DNA of 40,846 nt from a bacterium (GTDB taxonomy: Bacteria > UBA9089 > CG2-30-40-21 > SBAY01): assembly GCA_040757115.1 (NCBI GenBank), contig JBFLYA010000006.1, positions 1-40,846 of the forward strand, written 5' to 3'. A program made the translations under genes and the position numbers. Of the stretch, positions 1 to 40,846 are shown in pieces. The notes under the pieces were generated by a model. That model saw only the letters and a program-made list of their open reading frames with translations. It was not told the origin of the DNA and made no database searches. Numbering within the stretch: the stretch's first letter is position 1; each line of letters starts with the position of its first letter.

Positions 1-119
1 TTTCCACAATCAATTTCTACCTATTTCTATAAATTTCAATCTATTTCTATTATCTTATCTCCATATCACTCTTATCTCCTTATCCCCTTTCTTACACTTT
101 TGATATATAGCCTGAACGG

Positions 120-7329: not shown

Positions 7330-7740
7330 TCTCCTTATAATTGGTAACTGGTAACTGGTAACTGGTGAATGGTGATTAGTGCTCTGTTGCCATTCAAGTG
7401 ATTGATTGGCCATTGTCCCCCGCTGGCGGGGGTCTTATCGTTACCCACATCTTTTACTGGACAATGTTATTAACTATGCATTCATTCACAATTCACCATT
7501 CACAATTTTTTCCCTAAATTTCCTTAATAATGATGAATGGTGAATTATCAATTGTCAATTATTAAAACCCCTTTCTTCTCACGCTTCACGGTGTCCACTA
7601 AAACTTGTGGGTAACGATAAGGGCGGGGGTAGGGGGGTGGATTTTTCTATTTCAGATTTCATATTCCACCCTATTACCCCCGCCAGGGGACATCAATTGA
7701 GTAGCGACAGAGCATTAGTCACCAATTTTTAAATTCGTGA
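7330..7740. repeat. complex nested inverted-repeat region (ggtaactgg tandem, ~65-bp outer arms around cccgctggcggggg cores, inner cattcacaat palindromes)
   Basis: 7372-7440 is approximately the reverse complement of 7660-7735. 7421-7440 is approximately the reverse complement of 7603-7622. The internal 7440-7600 segment is itself partly palindromic. Confidence 0.6.
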
Positions 7741-10170: not shown

Positions 10171-10195
10171 TTTTTTTCACCTCCTTTAGTTTGGT

Positions 10196-10262
10196 AAATG
10201 GTAACTGGTAATTGGTAACTGATAACTGGTAATTAATTACCAATTACCAGTTACCATTTAAC
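10196..10262. repeat. perfect long palindrome of 'ggtaactgg/ccagttacc' units
   Basis: aatggtaactggtaattggtaactgataactggtaattaattaccaattaccagttaccattt is self-complementary. Related ggtaactgg runs occur at 2965-2990, 7340-7380 and 10905-10940. Confidence 0.6.
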
Positions 10263-10521
10263 CGATTACTTATTTTTAATTTCGTGAAGTCCTATTTGGT
10301 CAACGCTCTCGGATAAATTTGAGCGTTGATTTTATTAGTTTTCTCAAATCCACAGTTCTTCCTTCACCTCCATCTTTTTAAGTAGGAAGTGAGAAGTGAA
10401 AAGTGAGAAGTAAGAAAGTAAAAGGATAATTGATTAAACAGATTACATTTTTTGTAACCGTTCACCGCAGAGACACAGAGACGCAGAGAAGAAAATTAAA
10501 ATTTATGGACGATAGGCTTAA

Positions 10522-10633: not shown

Positions 10634-10924
10634 CAGGTCATAAGTATTTCAATGGCTACACCAATAATCTTTTCTGTTATCTGATTTATTTCCATATCTT
10701 CTCTGTTCCTCTGCGTCTCTGCGGTAAATTACCACCTGAACGGTTACCATTTTTTATTGTAAGCGGATTGAACGGATTGAGCGGATTTTTTTATTTCTTT
10801 TTCCGCTAAATTCGTTAAATCCGCTTACTAAATCCACCCGCTTGCTATTAAAAATCTGCTTCCTTAATTTTCTACCTGCACAGGTCGAAAGTTTTCTTGC
10901 TAAATGGTAACTGATGAATGGTAA

Positions 10925-17749: not shown

Positions 17750-18316
17750 AATGGTTAACCCTACAACGACATCTATGATTGATCCACAAATCAGGTGGTC
17801 TGGTGTCTGGGTGTCTAAGTGCCTGTGAGGTGGGTATGAGTGACGATAAGTATCGGCTGGATGATTTTGAGCTTTATCAACTGGCACGTAAGTTTCGACA
17901 AAATGTTTACAAGCTCATTAAACAGCTTCCATCTGAGGAGCGCTATTGTTTAGACCCGCAGATGAGAAAGGCGATTGTCTCAGTCACGAACAACATCGCA
18001 GAAGGACATGGACGTTGGCATTATCAGGAGAATATACGATTTTGCAGGATTGCAAGAGGTTCGGTTGAAGAAATTCTGGACGACATCAATGTTTGTATGG
18101 ATGAAGGCTACGGAGAGAAATCCGTAAGCGTTCAGCTCAGGAAGGAAGGTTACGAGCTAATTGCGAAAGTTAACAGTTATATTGGCTATCTACGTAGATG
18201 TAAGCAAGGAATGGAGGAAGAACAGTCTGGTGGTCAGACACCAGACACCTATCCCTCAGAGTATCTGAACGCTTACTAGCGGTAAAATTAGTAAATGACG
18301 TTGTAGGGTTAAATAA
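17750..18316. mobile_element. TIR-flanked, GC-elevated cassette carrying a four-helix-bundle (23S rRNA IVS-type) gene
   Basis: Imperfect TIRs ttaaccctacaacgacat (17755-17773) and atgacgttgtagggttaa (18297-18314). Inner inverted motifs ggtggtctggtgtctgg / ccagacaccagac. The enclosed gene is ~47% GC against ~35% in the flanks. Confidence 0.4.
17836..18279 (+). CDS. four-helix-bundle protein (TIGR02436; 23S rRNA intervening-sequence protein family)
   Basis: Y.LARKFRQNVYKLIKQLP..ERY.L..QMRKA..SV..NIAEG.GR....E...F..IARGS..E matches the family consensus. Start placed at MSDDKYRL. The ORF-track start at 17779 lies inside the left TIR. Confidence 0.82.
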   Translation: MSDDKYRLDDFELYQLARKFRQNVYKLIKQLPSEERYCLDPQMRKAIVSVTNNIAEGHGRWHYQENIRFCRIARGSVEEILDDINVCMDEGYGEKSVSVQLRKEGYELIAKVNSYIGYLRRCKQGMEEEQSGGQTPDTYPSEYLNAY

Positions 18317-19794: not shown

Positions 19795-19925
19795 TTCCAC
19801 TGAAAAATAGGAAGTAGAGAGTAGAGAGTAGAAAGTAGAGAATAGAGAAAAGTAGAGAATAGAGAGTAAAGAAAACATCACTTCACACGCCTATCTCCTT
19901 ACTTCCTACCTTCTATCTCCTACCA
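19795..19925. repeat. 'agtagagag' simple-sequence array plus complementary 'ctcctacttcc' segment
   Basis: ggaagtagagagtagagagtagaaagtagagaatagagaaaagtagagaatagagagtaaag, then ctccttacttcctaccttctatctcctacc. This is part of a 1-kb repeat-filled spacer upstream of the giant gene. Confidence 0.6.
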
Positions 19926-20224: not shown

Positions 20225-20332
20225 CCCGCTTCTGTCCTCTGCCTTCTGCCCTCTGCCCTCTGCTTTCTGCCCTCTGCCTTCTGTCTTCTGCCCTCTGTAT
20301 TTATCTGTGTTAATCTGTAGCTGAATAATTAC
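20225..20332. repeat. partial family-1 MITE right end (cctctgcc simple repeat + agctgaataattac terminus)
   Basis: Matches the right half of 954-1202, including ctgt(a/c)tttatc(c/t)gtg(c/t)taatc(c/t)gt...gctgaata(g/a)ttac. Confidence 0.5.
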
Positions 20333-20396: not shown

Positions 20397-20583
20397 AATT
20401 TCCACCTGTGCGGTTAAATGTAAAATGGATAATGTAAAATGAGAAATGTCCAATGAAAATGTATAACTGAAAGGTAATGAGTCTTGCGAAGTCCTAAAAT
20501 TTCCCAAATTTCATTTCCTATTTTACATTTATTTTTCCTTTGCGTCTCTGCGATGAATTAGTCTAATCGCACAGGTGGAAAAA
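20397..20583. mobile_element. MITE-like element family 2, copy A (TIRs ttccacctgtgcgRtta / taaYcgcacaggtggaa)
   Basis: ~187 bp, AT-rich core with 'tgtaaaatg' repeats. It is the reverse complement (a few mismatches) of 31461-31651. A solo terminus lies at 867-884. Confidence 0.7.
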
Positions 20584-20724: not shown

Positions 20725-23700
20725 ATGTGTAAAAAAATTATTTGGGGAATAATGTTGGGAATAGTGATGATTATTAATGCAAAGGTTGCTGTAGCAACAG
20801 ATGTCAGTGGTACTATCACTTCAAATACTACCTGGGATGTTGCTGGCAGTCCCTACATCATCACTGCTGATGTCATTGTCGATCAAGGAGTAACATTAGA
20901 GATTGAGCCGAATGTAGTAGTTAAATTTGCGACCGATACATCATTAATCAGCTATGGGACATTGACCGCTGTTGGAATACCGAATGGGACGATTACCTTT
21001 ACTTCTAATAAACCTACACCTGCTGCTGGAGATTGGACGAGTATTAAACTCAGTGGTACAGGAAGTAGTAGGAGCCAGATCAGTTATTGTCTGACACAGT
21101 ATGCCAAGCAGGCAGTATATTTGGAGAACACGGATAATGTAACGATAACATATAATACAATTAGAGATAATAAAGGTAATGATGGAATTGATAATCAAGC
21201 AACTACTGGGGAGATAGGTGCTGGTATCTATTTAGTGTCGTCAACTAATAATAACATTGAGAATAATACTATTTTTAATAACATTGGTGGACAAGGAGGA
21301 GATGGTGGATATGGTGGTGGAGTTGGTGGTGCTGCTGCAGGAGGACCAGGGGTTGGAATCTATCTTTCTTCATCAAGTAAGAATACTATCTCTCAAAATA
21401 CCATCTTTGATAACATTGGTGGACAAGGGGGAAGAGGAGCGCTTTTTGGAGGAGGAGGTTCAGGTGGTTCTGGAGCTGGAATTTACCTCTCTTCCGCATC
21501 AGTAGAGAATACCATCTCTCAAAACACCATTTTTAACAATGCTGGTGGGCAAGGAGGACAGAGTGGTGATTCTGCTCCAGGTGGTGCAGGCGATCCAGGG
21601 GTAGGATATGGCATCTATATTGATGATTCAAGCTGTTACAACAATACTATTGCTACAACCAATACTTATAATGGTGAGCCAATTCATTTCTACTATAGTC
21701 AAACAGGAATTATTATTGAAGATCAGATTTTAACTGGATCACCTACAACAAACTTAGGAAAGATTAACTTGATTAACTGTTCAGACTTTACTATCAGAGG
21801 AAATACTATTTCAGGAGCAAGAGGATATAGTGGTGAGAGTGGAGATCCTGAAGGTGAACAAGGAGGTAATGGAGTAGGGATATACCTATATCGCTCAGGA
21901 AGTGGTGTTGTTACAAGCAATAGTATTTCCGATAATATTGGTGGTCGTGGTGGTACCGGTCGGAAAGGTTGGTATGCAGCGAGTACAGGAGGTTCAGGTG
22001 GCATGGGATGTGGAATATACCTTTTGTCCTCTACAGATGTTGAGATTAGTGATAATATCATTTCTAACAATCAAGGTGGAAGAGGTGGTGGTTCTGCTGG
22101 TTGGGGTTCGGGTGGTAAAGGTGGACTTGGAGTAGGAATATCTCTCGGATCATCTACTTTAAACAGTATTAGTAATAACACTATTTCTAATAGCCAAGGT
22201 GGACTTTATGGAGGTGGATGGCCGTGTGGAAGAAATGGATTAGGTTGTGGTATCTATATAGACTCAAACAGTTATAATAATATTATAGATACAACTAATA
22301 CCTCTGATGGTCAACCAATCCATTATTATTACAACCGGACAGGGATTATTATTGAAAATCAGACATTAACAGGAACACCTACTACAAACTTAGGAAAGAT
22401 TGTTTTAATTAACTGTTCAAATTTTATTATCAGAAATAATACCATCTCTGGAGCTAGAGGAGATAATGGTAAAACTGGTTGGGCTAATCAAGTAGGTCAT
22501 CCTGGTGAAATTGGTGCTGGAATTTACATTTTATCATCAACAGGTAATACTATAATTGATAACACTATCTCTGATAATCAGGGGGGATTAGGTGGAGGAG
22601 GTGGTGGTGATGCTTCAGGTGGACCTGGTGGTATAGGAACGGGAATATACCTTGGTTCATCTACAAATAATACTATAAGTGGCAACACAATTTCTAATAA
22701 CAGTGGCGGAGAAGGTGGTCATGCTACTTATGGCAATAATTCTTCGGTAGGTGGCTGTGGTGGTGATGGTGCTGGAATTTATCTTTTATCATCAACTGAT
22801 AATACTATTCTCTCTAATAATATATTAGAGAATAGTGGAGGTAGAGGAGGTGGTGTTTATCAACAAGGTAATACTGGTGGTGTCGGTGCTGGTATATACT
22901 TAAACTCATCAGATAATAACAATATTAGTAGAAATAGTATCACAGACAATAATGGTGGTACAGGTGGCACTGGTAATTGTAGCCGAAATAAAGCTGGTGG
23001 TGCTGGTGGTATTGGTGCTGGTATATACTTAAACTCATCAGATAATAACAATATCAGGGAGAATAATGCCATTACAGATAATAGTGGTGGTACAGGTGGC
23101 AGTGGTTGTCCCATTGGTTCAAATGGTAATGGAGTTGGTATCTACGGTGCCTCTTCAGAAGTTGCCAATCTTATCTACAATAACATCTACAACAATACAA
23201 CCTATAACCTCTCAACTGACATCTCTCCGGGCACACAAACAGCAGAATATAACTGGTGGGGAACTTCAGTTGAGTCTGAAATTGTAGCTAAACTATCTGG
23301 TAAGATTGATTATATTCCCTGGTTGATGGGGACATGGACAGAATCAGCACAGATTACAATCTCACCTACTTCTGGTACTGTGGGTACCATCGTCACTGTA
23401 GAAGGTGAAGGATTTGGAAGTACAGAAACTGTACAGATAGATTTTGGAACGACTAAGACGATTACTACTGCCGCAACTAATGGCTTAGGAACTTTCTCAG
23501 TTACTTTCACTATTGATAACCAGCCAGCAGGTACAACTACAGTTACAGCTACTGGTCTTACATCTTCCTATTCTGCTACTGCCACATTTACAATAATTTC
23601 CATTACACAACCAGAGATTACTTTAATATCACCAACCTCTGGTACCGTGGGTACCATCGTTACTGTAGAAGGTAACGGGTTTGGTTCAACAGAGGCTATT

Positions 23701-26700
23701 CGGATAGACTTTGGGACAACTAAAACAATTAAAATAAGCACTACCAATGGAAGTGGACAATTTACTACTACTTTTACAGTCGATTACCAACCAGGCGGAA
23801 CTACTACTCTAACCGCAACAGGGCTTACTTCCAATTTAGTCGCTACGGCTACCTTTGTGACCATCACCCAGCCAACTACCGTTATTGAGCAAGAAGACTT
23901 CTGGAGATATACATATTCACCTAACTCTGGCTGGGAAACATTAGGATATGATGACAGTAGTTGGAGTAAAGGCAGAGCTCCTTTCGGAAATCAGTCTGAT
24001 GGTGATTGGATTCCTCATACAGATTGGCCTGCAGGGACGACACTATACCTTAGAAAGTATATTGATTTACCTGCATCTGCTAAATTGACTATCTATACTG
24101 GCGTAGATAACGAAATCCATATCTATATAAATGGTGTTAATATTTTTAATGCCTCTGCTCATGGATTTACATATCGCTGGGAATATACATTTGACATTCC
24201 TAAAGGATATATAAACCCAGGAAGAAATGTAATTGCTGTGCAAGCAGTGGATTGGGGTGGCGCGACAGGATTTGATCTGAAGGCTATTGCTGAGGTCAAT
24301 ATACCTCCAATGGGTTCTATGGCAATTAGTTCTGTGCCTTCGGAGGCAAAAATTTACTCAGATGGAATGGATACAGGTAAACTCACTCCTGCTGTCTTGA
24401 CCAATCTATCCACAGGTAGTCATCAAATTGTCTTAACTAAGCCTTTGTATAACAATTGGGCTGAAACTGTTACTGTATCCTCAGGACAGACTACAGAAAT
24501 AGATGTTCCTCTTAGACTTTCTCCAACAATTATCCTTACCCCTATTTCTGGTACTGTTGGAATTATAATCACAGTTACAGGTGAAAACTTTAGTCCAAAT
24601 GAGGCAATTAGGATTGATTTTGGTCTGATTTCTTCAATTACCATCGCCAGTACTACTGCCTACGGCACCTTTGCCACTACTTTTACGGTATCTTCTCAAC
24701 CAGCAGGAACCACTACTATTGTGGCTACTGGTCTTACCTCCGGGTCAAAAGCCTATGCTACCTTCACGCTTACTATTCCGGCGCAAGCAACACTGACTGT
24801 CCGATTAGACCAGATTGATGCCGCTAAATTCCCAACTATCGAATGCCATGTCCGTGTAACTCAAGGAACTACATCTATTGCAGGACTGACTGCGGATAAT
24901 TTCCAATTAACCGAGCAGTCTGAATTAGAATCTATAGCGACCGTAGAGATAATCAGTGTCAGTGCAACTAATTCCGCCGGAGTAGCCATCGCCCATGTAT
25001 TAGATAGAAGTGGTAGTATGCAAGGTCAGAAGATAACAGATGCTAAAACTGCCGCTAATTCCCTTGTTGATATGATGCAACCTCTGGATAGGATGGCGAT
25101 AGTCTCCTTTGCTTCAAATGTTACTGTTGACCAATCCTTTACCAGTAATCAATCTGCCTTACATACCGCTATTAACAACTTAGTTGCCGATGGAGCCACG
25201 GCTTTGTATGATGGCATATATACGGGAATAGGTCAATGCACACAAGAAATTGGTGTTAAAGCAGTTATTGCTTTAACCGATGGTCAAGAAAATAGTAGTT
25301 CACATACTCAGCAACAGGTAATTGATTATGCTATTGCCAGTGCTGTGCCTGTTTATACCATTGGTTTAGGCAGTGATGTGAATACTGACATACTTACGCA
25401 AATTGCCACAACTACTGGTGGAACATATCATTTTGCACCAAACTCTACTCAGCTACAAGAGATATTTGCAGATATTAGAGAAGAGATAGAACAGCAGTAT
25501 TTAGTTACTTATAATACTCATAACCCGAATTATGATGGCACACTGCGGAATGTAGTCATTACTGCGAGTTATAACTCTGCCATTGGCTCAGATTCTGGGA
25601 CATATCGTGTAGATGAACCACCGAAAATTATCCGCACCCCAGAAACTATTGCCTTAGGTTCACAAAGTCAACCTGCCAACCAACCATTGACTATCGCCGC
25701 AACCATTACTGATAATACCGCAGTTACTAATGCCACCTTATTCTATCGACATTCGGGAACACTAACCAGCTATTCTCAGCTGACTATGACTCATATGGGT
25801 AATAACCTGTATAAAACAACTATCCCAGCCGCAAGTGTTAATTACCCGGGCGTGGATTACTATATCACTGCCTCAGATGGTAGATTAGTCGCTTCAGACC
25901 CAAAAAACAATCCTGAAATCTACCCATATCAGATTGCGGTATATCCTAATGAAAAACCAGTGATTATACATACCCCTGTTTCTGGAGCGTTAATTAACTC
26001 ATCAGTAACTATTACTGCCTATGCTACGGATACCACAGATTATGTTACTTCGGTAACCTTATCCTATCGTATCAAGGGTTATGTGCTTTATGAGAATGTA
26101 GTTATGACTAAGGCAGGTAATACTTATACCGCTACCATACCGGCGAATAAGATGACCTTTGTCGGGGTCGAATACTATATTGTCGCGATGGACAATTATG
26201 GTTTGCGGGCATATCACGGCACAGATGTTAATCCACACTACATTCGTCCCAATGTTCCACCGAGTATAACCATTACCGCACCACCAGCACAAGGGGCTTA
26301 TGCTACCAGTTCTTATACCATCGCCTGGGTAGATGCTGACCCGGATAATGATGCCCAAATATCACTCTACTATGATACCAATAACACTAACTATGACGGC
26401 TCAACTATCACTACTGGACTTTCTGAGGATAGCAGTATCAATAGCTATATCTGGAATCTCTCAACTATCCCCGAAGGTAGTTACTATATCTATGCCTTGA
26501 TAGATGATGGCACTAATACACCCGTCTATGACTACAGCAATGGACCATTAAATATTGATCATTCACTACCACGAGCAACCATTACTACCACCCCTGCCTC
26601 ACCAATTACTGCTGCTGGGACAGTCTATGTTATCTTAACTGCCTCAGAAAAATTATCTGCCGTCTCACTGACATTTACTCCCTATGGTAAATCACCTCTC

Positions 26701-29700
26701 TCTATACCGTTGACTACCACGGATTATATCACCTGGCAAGGTAATTTCCAGGTTACTCTTTATACTGGCGATGGAATAGGCACATTTAACTATTCCTTGA
26801 AAGATTTATTCAATAATATTGTTACCGGAAGCCAAACTTTTGAGATAGATGTTTCAGGGGTAATATTTACGCAGTCAAATTATACCTTCAATGTTGAGAA
26901 GGACTATAATCAGCAGGGATTGGTTAGGGTTAAGAATATCGATAATGAGCCACACCAATTCTTCGCAGAATCTATTAATGTCCCTAAACCAATAGCGGTA
27001 AATTTTATGGGTGATGGTTCTGTGGATAATCCGATTACCTTACAGCCCGGGGAAGAGACAAATCTTATTCTATCAATGCATACCCAATATGCCACGAAAA
27101 CAAATTACTCCCTCGGCGGTAACTTGACCAATGATAAAGGGTTAATCTCGCATACGACAATAAATATTAATGTTCGCCTGCCCGAGGTTAGATTTACGGT
27201 TAGTCTTATCAGTGAAGACCCAATGACATTAGCCAAAACCTATAGAATTACCAATACGGGTGCTGACCCAATTCCGGATTTAACCATTGACCTCGGTGCA
27301 CTTAAAGATAAGGTGATTATGCATCCGTTACTCTATTCGCTATACTTAGGCACATCGAGTTCAGTTGAATTTAAGCTCATCCCCATTATCACTGAGACTT
27401 TTAGTGGGCTATCTGGCACCTGGAGTGTGAGTAGTGGAGATAAGGTGGTGGAGGTTCTTACTACCTGGCAGGTTACAGGAACCATCTATAAGGTAACATT
27501 AAATCAGCCCAAACTCGTCTTTGATATTAATTATCTATATCAATATGAATTAGAACAACATAAAGTAATAGTGGGATATTGTCCTAATGGAGCACCAATC
27601 TGGGGATGGGTAGCAGACCCGAGGTTAATTAAGAGCATTGACCCATTCTATATACCAACAGGATTTGGAACTTCAAATGTCAAAAGTGCAAACTTGAGTA
27701 TGCATTTTACAGAAGGAAATATTGAGCAAAATCGCAATACCTATATCTATATGAATAATAATGAAGTGGGTAGATTAATAAATGTTAATCCGGAAGGGTA
27801 TTATACATTTCCAGTTGCGCCAGACTATTTTATGTATCCCGACCCGTATGTTGGTAATCGCCGCAATGAGATTAGTATGGAGACAGATATAAATCCTGCT
27901 CATTTAGCCTGGGTAGGTAATTTCAGGGTTACCATACTCTTAGATAAGTTTGAGGTGTATGTTATTGCTACAAGTTCAGCGGCGGCTACCGCTACTGCCT
28001 GGGCATTACCCTATGTGCATCATAATTCAGACCAACTATTTGTCAATATTACTCAACCACCAGAGGGATTTGAGTATAAGATAGGTGCGAAGGTGCAGAT
28101 TAAGGCTGAGGTAAAGGATGAGCATGACATCTTCCAGTGGCTCTGCAATGTCTGTGTAAGTTTTACCAATAGCACCCAAACACTGAATTTATACGATGAT
28201 GGCATGCATAATGATGCCGGTGTAAATGACGGTATTTATGCCAACTACTGGTATCCTGCCAATGAAGGTAGTGTTACTATCACCGTGGTGGCGAATAACT
28301 GTAAGACACAGGCGACTGCGACAGTTAGTGGCAATATTATTGGCAATCGACCGCCGAGCATAGACATTCTTACCCCTACTGAATTACAAACATTACAAGG
28401 AACTACCACTATCTCGTATCAAGCCACAGACCCAGATGGCGATAGTTTATATTTCTATATCTATTATAGTGCCTCCTCGATTGGTCCCTGGAATCTGTTC
28501 TACAGTGGCGTAAATACTGTCTATCTCTGGAATACTAATATCCTGGAAAATGGTATTTACTATATTCGGGTAGTAGCCAGTGACCCTAACGGATTGACAG
28601 GCTCAGATACCGTCAAGGTAACTGTAAAGAATAAAAAACCAAAGATTAGAGTTAATCCTACTGCTGGCTCTCAATGTGCCTTAGTTACGGTTTATGGTGA
28701 AGACTTTGGTGCGACAGAGACGGTTCAGATTGACTTTGGGTTACATCTTAATATTACTACTGGCATGACTAATGCCGAAGGCTCATTTACTACCTTTTTT
28801 ACTGTCGATACGCAACCGGTTGGCACAGTCTCAGTAGTCGCTACCGGTATTGATTCACACCTGAGGGCCTCTGCAGATTTCACTATTACTGCACTACACT
28901 ATATCAAAGGATATATTCGCTATGCGAATGGTGAAGGAATTCCAGGCATCAAAGTCTATTTAATGAGCCCAATAGTAGATGACTGTTTTATCACTTCATC
29001 TGATGGTTATTATGAATTTACCGGTTTGCCCACCGGATATTATCGTGTAAGACCATATAAAGAATGGTATACATTTGAGCCAGCAGGAAGGGAATACCGC
29101 ATACTTACTGCCAGTTGCGATAATCAGAACTACATCGGGACACCACAGAGGTATTATATTAAAGGTAGATGTAACACAGAGGCAGATGAAGGGATAGGTG
29201 GAGTGCAGGTAGTTTTATCAGGTTCTGTGCAGGCAACCTATACTACTAATGCCAGTGGATATTATGCCTTCTGGGATGTTCCGGCGGGCACATATACCAT
29301 CACCCCTTATAGGCAATTCTATACCTTTGTTCCGGCAAATAGAATCCTTCCTAACATAGATTTCCATCAAGCAGGACAGGATTTTGTTGGCACATCTACT
29401 ACTGTAGAAAGATATTATATCAAAGGAACTATCACGGATATGAGTCATAATCCGTTAGCCGGGGTAAGGGTATATCTGTTTGGCACGATGGATAATGTTT
29501 TTATCACCAGAGCAGATGGTTATTATGAATTTACCAATCTTGAGTCAGGTTATTATCGAACCAGCCTGTGGAAACAAGGATATACCTTCGAACCATCTGG
29601 CAGAAGATATGAATACCTGTGTAGCCATTATGAGCATCAAGACTTTGACGATGATGGTCCACCACAAGGAATTCAACCACCACCACCTACCAGTACACTC

Positions 29701-30372
29701 ACATCGCTATTCTTTGTAGTAAAGGATAATGCAGGAAAAGGAATACCAGGGGCAAAGATTACACTGATGCCATTAAATGTAGAAAATGTAGTGAGGGTCT
29801 TCAGACCCGTTGGGGAAAACGCAGAAAATGTAGTGAGGGTCTTCAGACCCGTTGGGGAAAACGCATCTAAAGATGCTCACTACAGACCCGTCTCGGCTGA
29901 GATTATCACTGATGAAAATGGTATGGCAGATATGGTCAAGCCTATCTGGGAATTGTCTGGTAACTACACCATAAAGGTGGTAAAGTTAGGGTATAACTGT
30001 GAAAGTGAGGAGATTACTATTACGGATGAGGAATCGGTTTTTGACCTTGACTTTGTCTTAGAAGCATCACAGCCGTTACCACCCCAGAATAAACTTTACC
30101 AGAATTACCCAAATCCATTCAATCCCAATCAGGAAGAAACACAGATTCCGTATGATTTAGCCGTGAATGCTCATATAGTCATTAAGATTTACAACATTGC
30201 TGGAGAATTAGTCAGGACATTAGAGGAAGATAAACTTGCCGGGTCAAATATTACTACCCCATGGAATGGTAGAAATGATGATGGTGATATTGTCTCCAAC
30301 GGCGTCTATTTCTATCAATTACATATTGGTGGAAGTGTAGTTGGGACTAAGAAGATATTAGTAATAAAATAG
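20725..30372 (+). CDS. giant secreted surface protein (3215 aa): Gly-rich parallel β-helix repeats, IPT/TIG x4, GH2-N-like sugar-binding jelly roll, PEGA, vWFA, CarboxypepD_reg-like x3, T9SS-type C-terminal sorting domain
   Basis: Signal peptide, then ~15 PbH1-like coils, each N.I..N.I.DN.GG.GG...G.GIYL.SS. IPT/TIG units follow (ISPTSGTVGTIVTVEG.GFG.TE...IDFG). YDDSSW...IYTGVDNEIHIYINGVNI...DIPKGYINPGRNVIAV matches the GH2 N-terminal sugar-binding fold. A PEGA domain (SSVPSEAKIYSDG...TPAVLTNLSTGSHQIVLTKP) is present. The vWFA MIDAS motif DRSGSM...ALYDGI...LTDGQEN is present. YIKGY.R...G.G..GV.VYL..... repeats occur three times. The C-terminus NYPNPFNP.T.I.Y.L...A.V.IKIYNIAGELVRTL......G.....WNG.N..G..V.SGVYFY matches Por_Secre_tail/FlgD-Ig-like. 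Confidence 0.88.
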   Translation: MCKKIIWGIMLGIVMIINAKVAVATDVSGTITSNTTWDVAGSPYIITADVIVDQGVTLEIEPNVVVKFATDTSLISYGTLTAVGIPNGTITFTSNKPTPAAGDWTSIKLSGTGSSRSQISYCLTQYAKQAVYLENTDNVTITYNTIRDNKGNDGIDNQATTGEIGAGIYLVSSTNNNIENNTIFNNIGGQGGDGGYGGGVGGAAAGGPGVGIYLSSSSKNTISQNTIFDNIGGQGGRGALFGGGGSGGSGAGIYLSSASVENTISQNTIFNNAGGQGGQSGDSAPGGAGDPGVGYGIYIDDSSCYNNTIATTNTYNGEPIHFYYSQTGIIIEDQILTGSPTTNLGKINLINCSDFTIRGNTISGARGYSGESGDPEGEQGGNGVGIYLYRSGSGVVTSNSISDNIGGRGGTGRKGWYAASTGGSGGMGCGIYLLSSTDVEISDNIISNNQGGRGGGSAGWGSGGKGGLGVGISLGSSTLNSISNNTISNSQGGLYGGGWPCGRNGLGCGIYIDSNSYNNIIDTTNTSDGQPIHYYYNRTGIIIENQTLTGTPTTNLGKIVLINCSNFIIRNNTISGARGDNGKTGWANQVGHPGEIGAGIYILSSTGNTIIDNTISDNQGGLGGGGGGDASGGPGGIGTGIYLGSSTNNTISGNTISNNSGGEGGHATYGNNSSVGGCGGDGAGIYLLSSTDNTILSNNILENSGGRGGGVYQQGNTGGVGAGIYLNSSDNNNISRNSITDNNGGTGGTGNCSRNKAGGAGGIGAGIYLNSSDNNNIRENNAITDNSGGTGGSGCPIGSNGNGVGIYGASSEVANLIYNNIYNNTTYNLSTDISPGTQTAEYNWWGTSVESEIVAKLSGKIDYIPWLMGTWTESAQITISPTSGTVGTIVTVEGEGFGSTETVQIDFGTTKTITTAATNGLGTFSVTFTIDNQPAGTTTVTATGLTSSYSATATFTIISITQPEITLISPTSGTVGTIVTVEGNGFGSTEAIRIDFGTTKTIKISTTNGSGQFTTTFTVDYQPGGTTTLTATGLTSNLVATATFVTITQPTTVIEQEDFWRYTYSPNSGWETLGYDDSSWSKGRAPFGNQSDGDWIPHTDWPAGTTLYLRKYIDLPASAKLTIYTGVDNEIHIYINGVNIFNASAHGFTYRWEYTFDIPKGYINPGRNVIAVQAVDWGGATGFDLKAIAEVNIPPMGSMAISSVPSEAKIYSDGMDTGKLTPAVLTNLSTGSHQIVLTKPLYNNWAETVTVSSGQTTEIDVPLRLSPTIILTPISGTVGIIITVTGENFSPNEAIRIDFGLISSITIASTTAYGTFATTFTVSSQPAGTTTIVATGLTSGSKAYATFTLTIPAQATLTVRLDQIDAAKFPTIECHVRVTQGTTSIAGLTADNFQLTEQSELESIATVEIISVSATNSAGVAIAHVLDRSGSMQGQKITDAKTAANSLVDMMQPLDRMAIVSFASNVTVDQSFTSNQSALHTAINNLVADGATALYDGIYTGIGQCTQEIGVKAVIALTDGQENSSSHTQQQVIDYAIASAVPVYTIGLGSDVNTDILTQIATTTGGTYHFAPNSTQLQEIFADIREEIEQQYLVTYNTHNPNYDGTLRNVVITASYNSAIGSDSGTYRVDEPPKIIRTPETIALGSQSQPANQPLTIAATITDNTAVTNATLFYRHSGTLTSYSQLTMTHMGNNLYKTTIPAASVNYPGVDYYITASDGRLVASDPKNNPEIYPYQIAVYPNEKPVIIHTPVSGALINSSVTITAYATDTTDYVTSVTLSYRIKGYVLYENVVMTKAGNTYTATIPANKMTFVGVEYYIVAMDNYGLRAYHGTDVNPHYIRPNVPPSITITAPPAQGAYATSSYTIAWVDADPDNDAQISLYYDTNNTNYDGSTITTGLSEDSSINSYIWNLSTIPEGSYYIYALIDDGTNTPVYDYSNGPLNIDHSLPRATITTTPASPITAAGTVYVILTASEKLSAVSLTFTPYGKSPLSIPLTTTDYITWQGNFQVTLYTGDGIGTFNYSLKDLFNNIVTGSQTFEIDVSGVIFTQSNYTFNVEKDYNQQGLVRVKNIDNEPHQFFAESINVPKPIAVNFMGDGSVDNPITLQPGEETNLILSMHTQYATKTNYSLGGNLTNDKGLISHTTININVRLPEVRFTVSLISEDPMTLAKTYRITNTGADPIPDLTIDLGALKDKVIMHPLLYSLYLGTSSSVEFKLIPIITETFSGLSGTWSVSSGDKVVEVLTTWQVTGTIYKVTLNQPKLVFDINYLYQYELEQHKVIVGYCPNGAPIWGWVADPRLIKSIDPFYIPTGFGTSNVKSANLSMHFTEGNIEQNRNTYIYMNNNEVGRLINVNPEGYYTFPVAPDYFMYPDPYVGNRRNEISMETDINPAHLAWVGNFRVTILLDKFEVYVIATSSAAATATAWALPYVHHNSDQLFVNITQPPEGFEYKIGAKVQIKAEVKDEHDIFQWLCNVCVSFTNSTQTLNLYDDGMHNDAGVNDGIYANYWYPANEGSVTITVVANNCKTQATATVSGNIIGNRPPSIDILTPTELQTLQGTTTISYQATDPDGDSLYFYIYYSASSIGPWNLFYSGVNTVYLWNTNILENGIYYIRVVASDPNGLTGSDTVKVTVKNKKPKIRVNPTAGSQCALVTVYGEDFGATETVQIDFGLHLNITTGMTNAEGSFTTFFTVDTQPVGTVSVVATGIDSHLRASADFTITALHYIKGYIRYANGEGIPGIKVYLMSPIVDDCFITSSDGYYEFTGLPTGYYRVRPYKEWYTFEPAGREYRILTASCDNQNYIGTPQRYYIKGRCNTEADEGIGGVQVVLSGSVQATYTTNASGYYAFWDVPAGTYTITPYRQFYTFVPANRILPNIDFHQAGQDFVGTSTTVERYYIKGTITDMSHNPLAGVRVYLFGTMDNVFITRADGYYEFTNLESGYYRTSLWKQGYTFEPSGRRYEYLCSHYEHQDFDDDGPPQGIQPPPPTSTLTSLFFVVKDNAGKGIPGAKITLMPLNVENVVRVFRPVGENAENVVRVFRPVGENASKDAHYRPVSAEIITDENGMADMVKPIWELSGNYTIKVVKLGYNCESEEITITDEESVFDLDFVLEASQPLPPQNKLYQNYPNPFNPNQEETQIPYDLAVNAHIVIKIYNIAGELVRTLEEDKLAGSNITTPWNGRNDDGDIVSNGVYFYQLHIGGSVVGTKKILVIK
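29781..29897. mobile_element. MITE-like palindromic element family 3 inserted in-frame in the giant CDS, with tandem 42-bp duplication
   Basis: gaaaatgtagtgagggtcttcagacccgttggggaaaacgca x2 then tctaaagatgctcactacagaccc. Nested hairpins tgtagtgag/ctcactaca and gggtct-tc-agaccc. The same element lies intergenic at 40607-40704. Translated as ENVVRVFRPVGENA x2 ...KDAHYRPV. Confidence 0.7.
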
Positions 30373-30468: not shown

Positions 30469-31413
30469 ATGTTAAACAAAAAGGTACAACAGGTAAGTAT
30501 AACTCTATTTCTTTCTTTACTCTCTACTCTCTACTTTCTACTTCCTAATGCCGAGGCAGGGGCGGATACCGGCGCTGATTTCTTAAAGCTGGGCGTAGGA
30601 GCAAGGGCATCTGCAATGGGTGAGGCATTTTGTGCCGTAGCAGATAGTGTTGACTCTATTTATTACAATCCGGCAGGATTAGCCCGGCTGAAACAAAAAG
30701 AGGTCTCTGCAATGTATGGCGATAAACGAGAGGATACTGCCCGCACATCATTAGTTTATGCCCAGCCACTACAAGAATGGGAAGCTGGTGGCGTATTAGG
30801 AATAGGTATCATCTATCAAGACTTAGGTGAGATAGAACTGCGTGATAAATCTAATCAACCACAAGGTTCTATCAATCCCGCTGAGTTTGCCGTGATTTTC
30901 TCCTATGCGAAAAAGTCTTATGAAAATCTATTATTAGGTGGGAATGTAAAATACATCCAACGCGAGCTTAAGAAAATAAAGGCTAAAGCCGTTGCCTTTG
31001 ACCTTGGTCTCCTATATTTCCCGCAAATCCCAAAATTCCTAAACCTCTCAGGAACAGGTTTAACTACAGGTCTGTGTCTGGAGAATATAGGTAGTAAGAT
31101 AAAGGGTGATGAGTTGCCGTTAAACTTACGGCTTGGTGTAGCGTATTCGCCTTTAAATAATCTCTGCTGTAGTTTAGATGTGAACCAACACCTTTATAAT
31201 TCCGACTTATGTTGGAATCTTGGGCTTGAATATAGATATAGTTTGTTGGCTGTCCGACTGGGCTATTTTGACAAAGGAAGACAGATAAAGGGATTGAGTT
31301 ATGGGTTTGGAATAAAGTATCTGGGTTATCAGCTTGACTTTGCTAATCTTGCCAGTGGTGAGATGGAAAATGCAGAAGATATGAACCGCATATCCCTCTC
31401 AGTGAGTTGGTAG
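30469..31413 (+). CDS. PorV/PorQ-family-like outer-membrane β-barrel protein (T9SS-associated shuttle family); alternative: UPF0164/FadL-like
   Basis: Signal peptide. N-terminal motif GADFLKLGVGARASAMGEAF.AVADSVDSIYYNPAGLA resembles the conserved PorV/PorQ N-terminal block (G..FL.IG.GAR..AMGGAF.AVADD.SA.YWNPAGL). Alternating β-strand pattern with an aromatic C-terminus (SLSVSW). Strong SD aaggagg. Confidence 0.55.
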   Translation: MLNKKVQQVSITLFLSLLSTLYFLLPNAEAGADTGADFLKLGVGARASAMGEAFCAVADSVDSIYYNPAGLARLKQKEVSAMYGDKREDTARTSLVYAQPLQEWEAGGVLGIGIIYQDLGEIELRDKSNQPQGSINPAEFAVIFSYAKKSYENLLLGGNVKYIQRELKKIKAKAVAFDLGLLYFPQIPKFLNLSGTGLTTGLCLENIGSKIKGDELPLNLRLGVAYSPLNNLCCSLDVNQHLYNSDLCWNLGLEYRYSLLAVRLGYFDKGRQIKGLSYGFGIKYLGYQLDFANLASGEMENAEDMNRISLSVSW

Positions 31414-31460: not shown

Positions 31461-31651
31461 TTTCCACCTGTGCGATTAGACTAATTCATCGCAGAGACGC
31501 AAAGGAAAAATAAATGTAAAATGTAAAATAGGAAATGAAAAATGGGAAATTTTAGTACTTCGCAAGACTCATTACCTTTCAGTTATACATTTTCATTTTA
31601 CATTTCTCATTTTACATTATCCATTTTACATTTAACCGCACAGGTGGAAAA
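31461..31651. mobile_element. MITE-like element family 2, copy B (inverted relative to copy A)
   Basis: tttccacctgtgcgattagactaattcatcgcagagacgc...catttaaccgcacaggtggaaaa is approximately the reverse complement of 20397-20583. It is followed by a tctgcgtctctg motif also seen at 10470-10495, 10705-10730 and 32750-32775. Confidence 0.7.
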
Positions 31652-32518: not shown

Positions 32519-32580
32519 ATAGCGGTTATTAACTGGAAGTTTACATAGGATAATACCCATAAATAAGGCATGAGAATAAT

Positions 32581-32706
32581 CGTTCCGTTAGGAACATAAT
32601 ATTGGTAGGAATAGATAGACAAATCAATCAGTTCCGTAGGAACGATATATTGGTAGGAATAGATAGACAAATCAATACAGTTCCGTAGGAACGATATATT
32701 GGTAGA
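32581..32706. promoter_or_regulatory. three tandem ~47-bp direct repeats, each with a gttcc-gta-ggaac hairpin core, 130-250 bp upstream of giant gene 2
   Basis: (c)gttccgt(t)aggaac(a/g)ata(a/t)attggtaggaatagatagacaaatcaat(a)ca x2 plus a truncated third copy. Candidate operator or iteron array. Confidence 0.45.
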
Positions 32707-32834: not shown

Positions 32835-35800
32835 ATGCTAAAGAAATTTATCTTAATGTTATTTATATTATTTCCAACTATTAGTAATGCAGGTAATTGG
32901 GTAGCGTTTAAAGAAGGTATTACTTCGCCTACAAAGCCTGAGATTATAGTTGTAAAAGAGGATGCTTCAGGTATTACCTTAGATGCAAGTATCTTGGGGA
33001 TGAAGGTAGAAGCACGGAGCACGGAGCACGGAGCACGAAGTGTAGGGACAGAGATATTTCAGTTGCTTAGTATTCCAGGGCATGAATATAGCTATACCCA
33101 GGAAGTAGGCAAACCCAAACTGCCATTCCTTCAAATTCTCCTTGCCATCCCGGATGATGTAGAAATTAATCTTTCCTCTATTTCTACTTCCCACTTCCCA
33201 CTTCCTACTTCCTACTTAATCTATCCCGTGCCAAAGCAAGTAATCAAGACCACCCCTGAAGGCTACAAATACATCGCTGAGGAGTTCTACATAGATGAAG
33301 ATTTCTACAAGCAAGACATCTGGTATCCGCAAGAGGATAAAGTTATCACTTATCATACCAGTTATCTTCGTGACCAGCGGATACTTTATCTACAAATCCA
33401 TCCTATTCAGTTTAACCCGGCAAAAAATCAGCTTCAGGCTTATTCTAATCTGAAGATAGAGATAAAATACATGGCTAAAAAGGGCAGAAGTATTTCGTTA
33501 AAGCAGTCAAAGATGGCAGAGCCTTTTGCTAATGTCTTGCAGAAATCTGTATTGAATTACCTAGGCTACGGGTCTAAAGACCCTCACTACTTTCGTGCAC
33601 CTAAAAGAATAGGCACGGTTACTTACCCCAGTATCCTTAAAAGCCCCAATAACTCAGCAGATTATTTGATTATCACTTCTTCATCTTATTACCATAATTC
33701 TGATGTAGCCAGACTGGCTGAACATCGTGCTGAGTTCAACGGCTTTGATGTGGCTGTGGTTAATACTACCTCTATCTACAATGAATTCCCTATTACCGAT
33801 AAAGGCACAACTACATCTATTAAGGACTTCATCAGATATGTCTATTATAATTGGTCTGCCCCATCTATGGAGGATAATCATCTGGGATATATCCTTATAT
33901 TTGGGGATGGGGAGGAGACCCGGGATTCTTATGTTCCATCTAAAGAGATTCGAGAGATATATCCAACTATAAGAAATCCGGTATCTGACCCGTGGTATGC
34001 TTGTATTAATGATGAAGATTTGGATTGGAGCTACTGGACAGTGGATATAATGATTGGACGATTGCCTGTAGAGACTGGGACAGATGCAAAGACAATGGTA
34101 GATAAAACAATCGGCTATGAAAAGACCCCTGAGTTAGGTCAATGGCGTAACAAGATTTTATTAGTTACAGGCGAAGATGGTCTTGAACTCACAGTAATAA
34201 AGGATAATTACCTTTTACCTGCCGGGTTTGAAGTCGCTGAAACTACCCGCGGTGATGAGGTGTTTAATGCCATAGATAGTGGTCAATTATTGGTCTCCTA
34301 TTCTGGACATGGTGTCCCATTCGGATGGGCAACGAATCCTGCTTTTTCTGCTGAGCACGATGTCTCAAAACTCTCTAATAGAGGCAAACTACCTGTAGTT
34401 TTAGCCGCTGCTTGTGATACCGCTTGTTTTCAATATGATTATGATTATGTTATAGGAGAAACATTCCTCACAAAAGAAAATGGAGGGGCTATTGCCTATT
34501 GGGGGGCATCTGATCCTACTGGGGCAAATACTGATATATTCATTATAAAGGCATACCAGTTCATAGCCGACTACACCCCAAATACCTTCTATCTTGGACA
34601 AATAACCCTTAATACCTATTTTCAGTCATTACCACAAGAATGGAACCTATTAGGAGACCCTGCACTAACTATCTCACGGGTAGGTCTTGAACCAGGTAAG
34701 GCAGAGTTAGAGGTTGAACCAGTTGATATCAGGTTTAATCCCCAATCCCCTAAACCTGGCCAGCAGACAAATATCTCTGCAATTATCCATAATCTCGGGG
34801 ATATAGATGCAAAAGATGTATTAGTCCAATTCTTCCTTGGCAAACCTGGTGAGGGTGGGATGGAAATAGGCTCTAAAACAATCCCTGCCATCAAGAGTAA
34901 TGACCAGGAAACAGCAGTCATAGATTGGAAACAAAATCTACCTATCGGAGAATATCCAATCTATGTAATAATCAATCCTTATAATACCATTTTAGAAGCA
35001 GGGACAATCAATAATACCACCTGTAAATCTATAGAGATAAATTTCTATCAAGAAGGCTATCCTAAAATCCCTGAGGGAGGATTTACCATAGAAAACTCTC
35101 CTGTCATAGGAGATGTAGATGGGGATGAGGATTTAGAAGTGATGGCTTGTGCAGGAGGATATGTGTATATCTGGCATCATAATGGTTCGCCACTAAATAA
35201 TTGGTATAAGATAATCCCTGACCTTGCAACACCTTCTCCTCCTCTTTTAGCCGAGGTGGATAATGATGATGGATTAGAGGTGATAAAGAATGGTGGTGGA
35301 GGATTCTACATCTTAAGGTCTGATGGTAGTAATCTCGCTGGTTTCCCAATCTCAGGGTCAAATACAAGCAGTCCTGCCCTTGGAGATATAGATGGAGATG
35401 GGGATTTAGAGATTGCTATAGGGATGAACAATAAATTCTATCTCTTCCATCATACCGGAGAATTAGTAAAAGGAGATTGGCCTATAGATATAGCCGTAAA
35501 CCAGAACTATCACCCAATGATAGCAGATATAGATAGAGATGGTCATCTTGAAATTATTGTCCTTGCTGATAAGATATATGTCTTTAATAGCGAAGGTAAG
35601 TTAATTCCTGGGCAATGGCCTAAGAGTATCTCAGGGTATATATTTACTAATGGATTGGCTATAGGTAATATTGATAATGATGATGAATTAGAGATTCTCA
35701 TTGTGACACAAGAGGAACCAAAGATATTTTTGCACGCCTTGAATTATGATGGAACTAATGTGACAGGTTATCCGAAACAGGTAGGAGGAATGGATTATGA

Positions 35801-38800
35801 CTATCCATATTCAGTTACCCCTGGAGATATTGACAATGATAAAGAAATGGAAATAATTATTGATTGTAGAAAATCTATATATGTATTAAATTCTGATGGT
35901 AGTGATTTTCCAGGTTGGCCCAAAGGAGGAAGGGAAAGGGGACCATCTTATCCAGTAATTGCAAATGTAGATGGAGATAAAGTCTTAGAGATTATAGAAA
36001 GTAGAGATGATATGAAGGGAACGGTCACTATTTGGAATAATGATGGGACTAATCAAACAGATTTGTTTTTGAAACCAGGGGATAAAAGGACATCACCCTT
36101 TGTTGTGGGAGATATGGATTTAGATGGAGATATAGAAGTAATCTGTGGTGGGGAGGATTATAAAGACTTAGGTCGGGCATTACCAAAGATTTACATCTGG
36201 GACTACTGGGGCAGTTGTACCGCTGGGGCACTGGAATGGCCGATGGCAAATCACGATATGCGCCGGACTAATTGCTATAATACAGATATTGTCCCCCCTT
36301 CTCGCATAACTGACCTTAAGGCGCTTAATCCCAAACCTACCTCTATTGACTTAACCTGGACTGCACCTGGTGATGACAAAGATAAAGGCTCTTCTACCTG
36401 CTACTACATCCGCTACGCTACCTGGACCATTACCCCACAAAACTGGCACCTGACTAATAAAGCTACATCCACTATTGTTCCCAAAGATGCTGGCTCTCCT
36501 GAATCTTTTACCGTCCCTAACCTCTGCCCAACTACCACCTACTACTTCTGTATTCGCGCCAGGGATGATGACTTCAATCTCTCCCCACTTTCTAATATCA
36601 CCTTTGAGAAAACACTGTCACCAGCAATGATTACCCTGATTTCACCTACAAGAGGTGTAGTAGGTAAGCGGGTTACTATTAGCGGGTGCAATTTCTACCC
36701 GACAGAGACCATTCGCATAGAATTTGGCAATACTACCACTATTGCTCTATCTACCTGTGTTGGTGGTTCTTTTACTACTACCTTTACCGTTAATGACCAG
36801 GGATTTGGCACGATAACCATTACTGCCTATGGACTTATTTCAGGATATGAGGCAAGGGCGTCCTTTTATATCACTGCCGTAGAATATTTTCTGTTTGCCA
36901 CAATTTCCTCTCCCCAAATAGCCGGGACAGGATTTCGAATAAAGATGACTGCTTATGATGAATTTGGTGATGTAGTGCTAAATTTCAAAGATAAAGTTGG
37001 ACTCTCTGACCTTTCTCAAACCATTCAACCTACTATCACCTCTAACTTCACTGATGGCATCTGGGATGGCACAGTTAGCATCACCAGAGCAGGCACGAGC
37101 GCGATTACTGCAGGTTACCAGAGTAAGACAGGCACAAGCAATCCATTTTATGTCTGGCCAGGCGAGCCAGTTAAATTCATCGTCTATCCTGAAAATCCTA
37201 TCTACATCCTGGCAGGGGGTTCAGTAAGCATCACTGCCCAATTAAGCGATGTTTATGGTAATGCGGTTGGGTCTGCAGGGATTAGTTGTAATTTAGAGGT
37301 AGTGGTGCTTTCTGGTAAAGCAGGAACACTATCTGCCACCACTTCTACTACCACCAATACCGGTCAGATAAACACTATTACCTACTGGGTTTCCCCTCAT
37401 GCCAACGATAAAGTCAGGATAAAACTCCTATCTACTCTACCACCTGCTACCTCCGGCACTATTACTACCACTTCTGGCGAATTAGCAATGTTCACCTTCG
37501 ATACTATTGCTACCCAGACTGCGGGGATGAATTTCCCCATTAAAATCACCGCCAGAGATGCCTACGAAAATCCTATCCCTTTTACCAGGACAGTAACTCT
37601 AATTGACTTCAGTAACAGCCTTAAACCTACACAGACTACTTCATTTATAGATGGTCTGTGGGCTGGATTTGGCTCTATCACCGTAAGAGGCACTACCAGT
37701 ATTACTGTGATTTATGGGGATATTCGAGGCACAAGTAACACCTTCTGGGTCTGTGGCGGCGAGGTAGAGTATTTTGTCATTAGCAGCATAACTACTCAAA
37801 CCGCAGGTATTAGTTTCCCAGTCAGCATCAATGCCTATGACCGCTGGAGAAATATTGCTGATATGTTTAACTCATCCGCCATACTAACTGATACCAGCCA
37901 CAGCATTAGCCCGACTAAAACCACAAACTTTAGCCTGGGCATCTGGGATGGCACAGCTAGCATCACCAAAGCAGGCACAACCACGATTATGGCAGGTTAT
38001 CAAGGTAAAACAGGCACAAGCAATCCCTTCTTTATTACCCCCAGTAGCCTCGACCATTTCTTAATCGGCACTATCACCAATCAAATTGCTGGGATAGATT
38101 TTCCTGTCGTCCTCACTGCAAAAGATGCCTACAACAATACAGTAAGCACCTTTACCGATAAGGTGCAATTGGAAGATACCAGCCTAACATTGAATCCAAA
38201 GATAACTGATAATTTTGTGGCAGGTATCTGGGATAGTATTGGCTCTATTACCAGAACAGGCACTACCTCGATTACAGCAAGTTACCAGGGAAAAACAGGC
38301 ACAAGCAATCCCTTCTTAGTTAGCCATAACATTCTTGCCCATTTTCTGATGGGGACTATTAGCAATTGTGTAGCAGGCGTTCCTTTTCCCATAACCATTA
38401 TGGCACAAGATTCTTACGGTAACACGATGCTTAACTTTAGTGATAAAGTCCAGTTAGAGGATAGCTCGCTGAGCTTGAATCCGAAGTTAACCACCAACTT
38501 TGTGGCAGGTATCTGGGATGGCATTGGCTCTATTACCAGAACAGGCACAACCTCGATTATGGCAGGTTACCAGGGGAAAACAGGCACAAGCAATCCCTTC
38601 TTAGTTAGCCATAACCGCCTTGACCATTTTCTGATTGGGACTATTAGCAATTGTCTTGCGGGCATTCCTTTTCCCATCACCATTATGGCACAAGATTCTT
38701 ACGGTAACACGATGCTTAACTTTAGTGATAAAGTCCAGTTAGAGGATACCTCACTGACCTTAAATCCGAAGCTAACCACCAACTTTATGGCAGGTATCTG

Positions 38801-40604: not shown

Positions 40605-40606
40605 GG

Positions 40607-40704
40607 AAATGTAGGTAAGGAAATGTAGTGAGGGTCTTTAGACCCGTTTCATGGAAAGCTTGCATTTAAAAGGGGAACGCATCTAAAGATGCTCACTACA
40701 GATA
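40607..40704. mobile_element. MITE-like palindromic element family 3, intergenic copy abutting the stop codon of giant gene 2
   Basis: ggtaaggaaatgtaggtaaggaaatgtagtgagggtctttagacccgtttcatgg...gggaacgcatctaaagatgctcactacaga. The TAA stop (40602-40604) lies in the first 'ggtaagg' unit. Confidence 0.65.
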
Positions 40705-40846
40705 GAAAAAATTATATTTATTTTAATCCTGATAATCTGCGAAAATCTGCGTCCTATTAATTTTTGGAACACAGATGAACAGATAACACAGATTATATAT
40801 TCTCTAATTCACTAATTCCCATAAACCCATACCTTTGGGTTAAAAT

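Follow-up and report, generated by a model that had tools for sequence, protein, structure and literature searches.

The window analyzed here is the whole of contig JBFLYA010000006.1 (40,846 nt), part of an NCBI metagenome-assembled genome (MAG) labelled 'bacterium'. The contig is chromosomal, carrying genes for IlvD, phosphoenolpyruvate carboxykinase (PEPCK), a SurA-like protein, shikimate kinase and a secretin. It contains two giant open reading frames (ORFs), ORF1 and ORF2, with a PorV-like gene between them (table 1). The protein encoded by ORF1 comprises beta-helix/NosD repeats, PEGA, VWA and CarboxypepD_reg-like domains and a C-terminal sorting domain typical of the type IX secretion system (T9SS). 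Copies of a short palindromic repeat are found at three sites: in frame within ORF1, within ORF2 and in the intergenic region that follows ORF2. It is this repeat, and the manner in which ORF1 has accommodated it, that we describe.

The repeat is built of 22-nt arms, which are recognizable in the window well above chance: the left-arm pattern (TGTAGTGAGGGTCTTYAGACCCGTT) has four matches and the right-arm pattern two, against none expected from shuffles in either case. In ORF1 a perfect tandem duplication spans 29781-29865 (period 42, 2.0 copies, 100% matches; Tandem Repeats Finder), confirming the two 42-bp units recognized in the first-pass annotation of this DNA, and the motif GTAGTGAGGGTCTTCAGACCCG is present in both of them. 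The left arm of the second unit forms with the right arm an intact head-to-head dimer (29830-29883, 54 nt from GTAG to CTAC), which has a predicted folding energy of -27.6 kcal/mol (29826-29888; z -5.7). At 29883-29891, CAGACCCGT is a further occurrence of the left arm's 3' half, so that the 18-nt segment that follows the right arm may be a partial third arm. The intergenic copy is also a head-to-head dimer (-32.8 kcal/mol, z -5.8), beginning 20 nt past the ORF2 stop codon (40602-40604), the usual position, just 3' of a gene, for repetitive extragenic palindromic (REP) sequences. It had been reported at 40607-40704; the copy is real, with a core narrower than those limits. Its arms are essentially identical to those of the ORF1 copy and its spacer is 23 nt longer, a difference that had gone unrecorded, as had the single arm in ORF2 (33569-33590). 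The latter is located in the linker between Propeptide_C25, which ends at residue 242, and Peptidase_C25, which starts at residue 277.

Table 1. Coordinates of the repeat copies, their host genes and associated features. Positions refer to the window unless another contig (L number) is named.
Feature	Position	Strand	Description
Giant ORF1	20725-30372	+	3215 aa; host of the in-frame repeat insert
Fourth CarboxypepD_reg-like beta-sandwich	29689-30066	+	Interrupted by the insert between strands 2 (KITLMP) and 3 (AEII)
Tandem unit 1	29782-29823	+	42 nt, 14 codons, ENVVRVFRPVGENA; left arm copy 1 at 29788-29809
Tandem unit 2	29824-29865	+	100% identical to unit 1; left arm copy 2 at 29830-29851
Right arm, ORF1 copy	29862-29883	-	GTAGTGAGCATCTTTAGATGCG on the minus strand; translated ASKDAHY
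18-nt segment after the right arm	29884-29901	+	AGACCCGTCTCGGCTGAG (RPVSAE); missing from the sister domains
Giant ORF2	32835-40604	+	2589 aa; C25 peptidase, FG-GAP repeats, T9SS tail
Single arm in ORF2	33569-33590	-	GTAGTGAGGGTCTTTAGACCCG; translated GSKDPHY
14-nt tandem duplication	40599-40628	+	AGGTAAGGAAATGT; perfect, 2.1 copies; reaches across the stop codon of ORF2 and the GTAG terminus of the intergenic copy
Intergenic head-to-head dimer	40624-40700	+	Left arm 40625-40646, 31-nt spacer, right arm 40678-40699 (minus strand)
Second GTAG-bounded palindrome	L032 5293-5320; L035 1357-1384, 2599-2626; L043 2916-2943; L061 206-234, 2437-2465		

Each arm consists of GTAG, followed by TGA and then a 6-bp stem with a 2-nt loop. 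The stem is GGGTCT/AGACCC in the left arm and GCATCT/AGATGC in the right, and the two arms face each other with their GTAG ends outermost. Because the stems differ, the arms may fold separately or combine into one long imperfect hairpin. Full copies have the layout TGTAGTGAG-stem-loop-CGTT, a spacer of 9-70 nt, and AACG-stem-loop-CTCACTACA, measuring 53-96 nt from GTAG to CTAC. One genome for each prokaryotic species was searched with a degenerate 22-nt arm pattern. The pattern permitted 16 combinations at the variable stem positions, only four of which pair, and Watson-Crick complementarity was kept in every arm that it found (62/62). Among the 29 distinct arms GTAG is invariant, the stems are paired in 97.7% of cells and both sides have changed at three of the six pairs (32 cells); these values of pairing and covariation were reached in none of 500 shuffles. 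About 20 head-to-head dimers were recovered, and arms that stand alone are no less frequent than strict dimers.

The scan placed the arm pattern on 53 contigs of other MAGs. Most belong to three genomes with many dispersed copies each, namely JBFMHD01 (labelled Hydrogenedentota, ∼25 contigs), CAZYWQ01 (Sumerlaeota, ∼12) and DYDG01 (Marinifilum sp., ∼12), and one or two hits per MAG were obtained from genomes labelled Omnitrophota, Desantisbacteria, Caldilineales, Dehalococcoidia, Deltaproteobacteria, Methanosarcinales and Nanoarchaeota. The copies are nearly always outside ORFs and many lie within 60 nt of an ORF 3' end, which upholds the earlier proposal of a dispersed, noncoding family with intergenic members. 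Viral contigs, scanned for a possible phage vector, did not contain the pattern, and it was not found in the 14-15 kb sampled from each of two relatives chosen by their PEPCK genes (L061 and L063), in which another GTAG palindrome and 7-nt arrays are present. The host MAGs contain a second family of GTAG-bounded palindromes (GTAGAGAC...GTCTCTAC, 28-29 nt), some copies of which lie within the spacers of first-family elements, and it is found in a PEPCK-defined relative of the window's organism as well (table 1).

Outside the window only about one in 56 arms is internal to a credible gene. This is an ORF with similarity to ComEC (785 codons, measured between stops) of MAG DYDG01, in which positions 5260-5335 of contig L042 encode CGSKDPHYYEP CGFKDHHHKL. 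The insert consists of an arm and a diverged 30-nt tandem copy, in frame, making it the second case of an arm within a gene that is accompanied by a tandem duplication. The inverted arm is read in one common frame in ORF1, ORF2 and the ComEC-like ORF, giving (G/A)SKD(P/A)HY in each case. On contig L045, an arm overlaps the C-terminus of a NUDIX ORF and supplies its last residues.

The ORF1 insert had been assigned to the region between the last CarboxypepD_reg-like domain and the C-terminal sorting domain, where it was thought to have been exapted as a coding linker. Three lines of evidence instead place it inside the fourth CarboxypepD_reg-like domain, a weaker example than the others, whose beta-sandwich it splits at one loop. 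First, Pfam returns split hits (22.3 bits) when the insert is present and one contiguous CarboxypepD_reg hit (profile positions 6-82 of 82, 30.7 bits) when it is deleted. Second, alignment with the three sister domains of the ORF1 protein produces a single 37-residue gap opposite VRVFRPVGENAENVVRVFRPVGENASKDAHYRPVSAE, and a homologue, P0003 (32% identity, same C-terminal architecture), has 11 residues in this loop and 33 fewer overall, in agreement with the gain of ∼38 residues estimated previously. Third, in an AlphaFold model of the domain, which can be no more than indicative given that it is based on a four-sequence alignment, the strands of the beta-sandwich have predicted local distance difference test (pLDDT) values of 70-90, and residues 31-65, exactly the element-encoded stretch, fall below 50 and have no secondary structure. 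The extra ∼33-37 residues are most likely a flexible surface loop. The insert is accordingly not an inter-domain linker, and a gained function, as implied by exaptation, finds no support in a segment modeled with low confidence and without secondary structure; that a permissive loop simply tolerates the added residues is the more economical view.

The reading frame of ORF1 is uninterrupted across the insert, as had been observed. Only one of the three forward frames of the insert is open, and it is the frame in use; the intergenic copy, by comparison, has stop codons in all six frames. Both the ORF1 dimer (54 nt) and the duplication (42 nt) are multiples of three. One open frame and a length divisible by three are what a survival filter predicts, under which insertions that break the frame or strike the core of a domain would be lost.

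We propose, with a probability of roughly 0.7, that the element is a head-to-head heterodimer of GTAG-tagged REPs, that is, a nonautonomous repeat resembling a REPIN (REP doublet forming hairpins), and that the ORF1 copy was inserted into the gene and tolerated in a loop. A short-spacer dimer would have entered the strand 2-3 loop of the fourth CarboxypepD_reg-like domain, probably mobilized in trans by a Y1 transposase of the REP-associated tyrosine transposase (RAYT) type that acts on hairpins of single-stranded DNA, the mechanism suggested for REPs and for REPINs. The insertion would have survived because it brought no stop codon in the landing frame, had a frame-keeping length and met a loop that tolerates additional residues. 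The left arm and spacer would then have been duplicated in tandem, probably by slippage or by local reiteration of the kind seen in REP clusters. The duplication is perfect and hence recent, and ongoing slippage, as suggested in the first-pass annotation, would be plausible for units that are 100% identical.

The first-pass annotation had called the element a palindromic miniature inverted-repeat transposable element (MITE), meaning a deletion derivative of an insertion sequence (IS) that has terminal inverted repeats and is mobilized by a DDE transposase. It is indeed a small, noncoding, dispersed palindromic repeat, and its arms would serve as imperfect terminal inverted repeats of ∼22 nt. 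The term is nonetheless imprecise, and we consider a classical MITE unlikely. None of the ∼20 dimers is bordered by a target-site duplication: of 30 strand-views, 16 have no nucleotide shared between the flanks, 12 have one and 2 have two. Solitary arms are found as often as dimers, and every arm forms a GTAG-tagged hairpin in its own right, the stem of which varies in a compensatory manner. Moreover, clustering of the ORFs around all copies (∼330 kb of flanks) revealed no recurrent transposase beside them, only ABC ATPases, response regulators and spurious ORFs lying over repeats.

Hairpin ends and the lack of target-site duplications would suit a remnant of an IS200/IS605-family element, similar to a palindrome-associated transposable element (PATE), which has subterminal hairpins and is mobilized as single-stranded DNA by TnpA(Y1) without creating duplications. 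These features are equally true of REPs. The wide taxonomic spread of the arms is better suited to a horizontally moving IS family than to a domesticated RAYT. However, the ends of IS200/IS605 elements are asymmetric. Neither a tnpA nor a tnpB ORF was found next to any copy, and the conserved GTAG tag and symmetric head-to-head dimers are hallmarks of REPs (PMC3733652), making a PATE-like origin improbable.

The window is a MAG contig and repeats are classic sites of misjoining, raising the possibility that the ORF1 junction or the 42-nt duplication was created during assembly from a repeat shared among contigs. We regard such an artefact as very unlikely because both flanks are colinear, in one frame and within one domain, with the homologues P0003 and P0163, the Pfam domain becomes contiguous when the insert is removed, and the duplicated stretch is only 84 nt, which we assume to be shorter than a typical short read. 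Least probable of all is that the stretch belongs to the original coding sequence of ORF1 or serves as a functional RNA motif, with the intergenic copies derived or convergent, since, despite the intact ORF1 arms and the stable RNA fold of the dimer, this is largely refuted by more than 50 copies outside genes in other genomes, the segment is lacking in sister domains and homologues, and there was no Rfam match (none in the whole window at gathering score, none for either copy at E values up to 1) and no terminator-like site in 40300-40846, the intergenic copy having no T-run.

Several observations weigh against the proposal of a REP dimer captured by ORF1. No gene for a RAYT or other Y1 transposase was found near any copy, either in the window or in the ∼330 kb of flanks, and a search of the flanks for the HUH/Y1 signature motif was negative. 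The only hint of such a gene is a remnant encoding a DnaA_C-like helix-turn-helix (E 0.0015), which adjoins an arm on the minus strand of contig L039 (5300-5600). A 104-residue homologue of it is encoded on L059 (3497-4010), downstream of a 60-residue fragment (MARPWRIQYTGTIYHV...) with no match in Pfam, NCBIfam or PDB. Follow-on searches with the L039 remnant gave only short DnaA_C-like proteins. The L059 fragment looks like the N-terminus of a Y1 transposase, a likeness with no database match on which we do not rely; the remnants may represent a decayed transposase-like gene, for which there is likewise no supporting match.

The distribution is also awkward for this proposal. REPIN-RAYT systems are reported to be inherited for the most part vertically (10.1101/2022.05.22.493013), which is hard to reconcile with near-identical 22-nt arms across MAGs whose labels name different phyla. 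This cross-phylum spread may partly be an effect of labels or binning because an ABC ATPase is 90.7% identical between L004 (140-1144) and L010 (2735-3745), contigs labelled 'bacterium Yes70-11' and 'Marinifilum sp. IMS_BF-2', and the element flanks on L017, from a MAG labelled Methanosarcinales, resemble those of copies in DYDG01. For the window's own genome, only three repeat sites, in 41 kb, are known. Finally, neither an empty-site allele nor an ortholog above 50% identity was found in the collections searched. In whole-protein searches with ORF1 no relative exceeded 42% identity, across 32% of the query, a metagenome scan with its C-terminal 330 residues gave a hit to the sorting tail only, and an exact-sequence look-up of three window proteins returned no record. 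It is consequently from paralogs and distant homologues that we infer an origin of the ORF1 copy by insertion rather than by loss in relatives.

The closest homologue of the ORF1 C-terminus, P0163 on contig L060 (50% identity), has a different palindromic insert in the same loop. Heptameric repeats lie at 604-686 and 1143-1260 of this contig. In the loop, inverted arrays of 7-nt units, (GGGATNA)n followed by (TNATCCC)n, are translated as KGIRDEGLRDESSLLIPHPSSPIPYPS, and the heptamers of the loop insert recur just after the stop codon of that gene. This second repeat type could have arrived by separate insertion or through remodelling of an older insert; either would account for it. The long loop of the L060 protein makes it possible that the ORF1 insert, too, is an older composite that was later remodelled, a further point against a simple capture of a REP dimer. 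A more far-reaching idea, which we regard as rather doubtful, is that the strand 2-3 loop of the last CarboxypepD_reg-like domain in these giant T9SS cargo proteins, where the ORF1 and L060 inserts occupy the same codon position, is a recurrent landing and expansion site of palindromic repeats from intergenic DNA, in which insertion and tandem slippage vary the length and sequence of a surface loop, and that the REP family spreads horizontally, unlike vertically inherited REPIN-RAYT systems. If the loop is hit repeatedly, or if the arms do cross phyla, this would bear on how REPs spread and on how surface proteins diversify.

A gene for a 23S rRNA intervening-sequence protein (PF05635) is located directly 3' of the giant-protein gene on L060 (1269-1532), and another is present in the window (17779-18279).

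The window is rich in other tandem repeats, above all with 7-nt units. Four such arrays lie in frame within ORF2: AGCACGG (33011-33037, 3.9 copies), ACTTCCC (33186-33217, 4.6 copies), GAAATGG (39003-39034, 4.6 copies) and CCCCGAG (39476-39551, 10.9 copies), the last encoding PEPRAPNPEPRAPSPESRAPSPESR. Gain or loss of one unit would shift the frame, making these arrays candidate phase-variation switches of the giant protease/adhesin. Almost every intergenic region contains 7-nt arrays as well (1128-1156, 7338-7366, 10192-10269, 19813-19872, 20231-20297, 20416-20463, 30514-30542 and 31511-31634), and some form inverted pairs that could fold into long hairpins, comprising TGGTAAC/GTTACCA at 10195-10260 and AAATGTA/TACATTT at 20415-20531 and 31511-31634. 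The units TAACTGG and TAACTGA resemble the TAACTGA repeats of Beggiatoaceae, Cyanobacteria and Bacteroidetes (PMC4679880), and AAATGTA resembles AAATGTAG, which flanks the GTAG end of both REP dimers. Similar arrays are found beside REP arms on eight contigs (L009, L015, L019, L024, L034, L045, L051 and L053), and also on L063. The two duplications attached to REPs in the window, of 42 and 14 nt, are multiples of seven in a genome with many 7-nt arrays, possibly a coincidence given that periods of 27, 48 and 285 are also present. The 27-nt repeat (12948-13078, 4.9 copies, 96% matches) encodes nine-residue protein repeats in a minus-strand ORF of 351 residues without Pfam match (12876-13931), and the 48-nt repeat (32578-32705, 2.6 copies, 93% matches) lies upstream of ORF2.

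A sibling MAG (GCA_040755795.1) is represented by a 2.5-kb contig only, L058, whose PEPCK gene is 98.7% identical to that of the window at the DNA level. The two contigs part at window position 10886 (L058 2090), in the repeat-rich intergenic region downstream of PEPCK, and past this point L058 matches window positions 1-46, which suggests a rearrangement or an assembly break at the repeats.

Among known systems, the element most closely resembles the GTAG-tagged REPs (GTAG-REPs) described by Di Nocera, De Gregorio and Rocco (2013; PMC3733652). These have stems of 5-13 bp and loops of 2-4 nt, form head-to-head, tail-to-tail and head-to-tail dimers with spacers of 1-100 nt, including heterodimers, are reiterated in tandem as clusters together with flanking DNA, and prefer the 3' side of ORFs. 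Intragenic examples, mostly dimers or groups, encode 20-30 and up to 82 residues. All the structural criteria of that study apply to the present family: an unpaired GTAG at one end of a stem-loop of appropriate stem and loop size, subfamilies with complementary stems, single units and inverted dimers, heterodimers foldable as a larger hairpin, a location mostly 3' of ORFs, and occasional tandem reiteration with flanks and intragenic copies. Unlike GTAG-REPs, which are known from Proteobacteria, the hosts are uncultivated lineages (labelled Hydrogenedentota, Sumerlaeota, Omnitrophota, Desantisbacteria or simply 'bacterium'), one 22-nt arm occurs in MAGs labelled as several phyla, and a cognate RAYT was not found; the arm sequence is not among the REP families checked in the text of PMC3733652. 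The anatomy of REPINs (Bertels and Rainey 2011; PMC3116915, PMC3337134) is shared by the ∼20 head-to-head dimers. In REPIN-RAYT systems the same genome holds the cognate RAYT, a Y1 transposase typically flanked by REPs (PMC3116915, PMC3337134). With classical MITEs such as Correia, ERIC and Nezha (PMC10969869), the element has in common small size, lack of coding capacity, inverted-repeat ends, dispersal and the potential for in-frame fusions, but it differs in having GTAG-tagged hairpin ends, no target-site duplication and no parent IS that could be found.

The fate of the ORF1 copy is closest to that of the Rickettsia palindromic elements (RPEs), which insert in frame into ORFs that are likely still functional (PMC3733652, PMC10969869). 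In both cases a palindromic repeat lies in frame within a gene, and its translation adds a peptide to the protein where the fold can accommodate one. The likeness is one of behaviour and not of family membership: RPEs appear to be an unrelated sequence family with different hosts, RPE-1 is longer (∼100-150 bp), and RPEs are frequent in genes (44 insertions in R. conorii) compared with about one intragenic arm in 56 here outside the window. Three features are mildly unusual: the host lineages themselves, arms that are nearly identical in MAGs with labels of several phyla, and the different palindrome in the L060 loop. With these findings, the known range of GTAG-REP/REPIN-type repeats, and of genes that occasionally capture them in frame, comes to include uncultivated lineages whose giant surface proteins are secreted by the T9SS. 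The ORF1 copy is also a clean example of an insertion-survival filter, in which the frame has to be open, the length divisible by three and the receiving loop permissive. Annotators of giant adhesins should treat stretches of this kind as repeat-derived rather than as new motifs, and as likely assembly break points. In-frame inserts of REPs and RPEs are already documented in Rickettsia and other bacteria, and the ORF1 case adds another to them.

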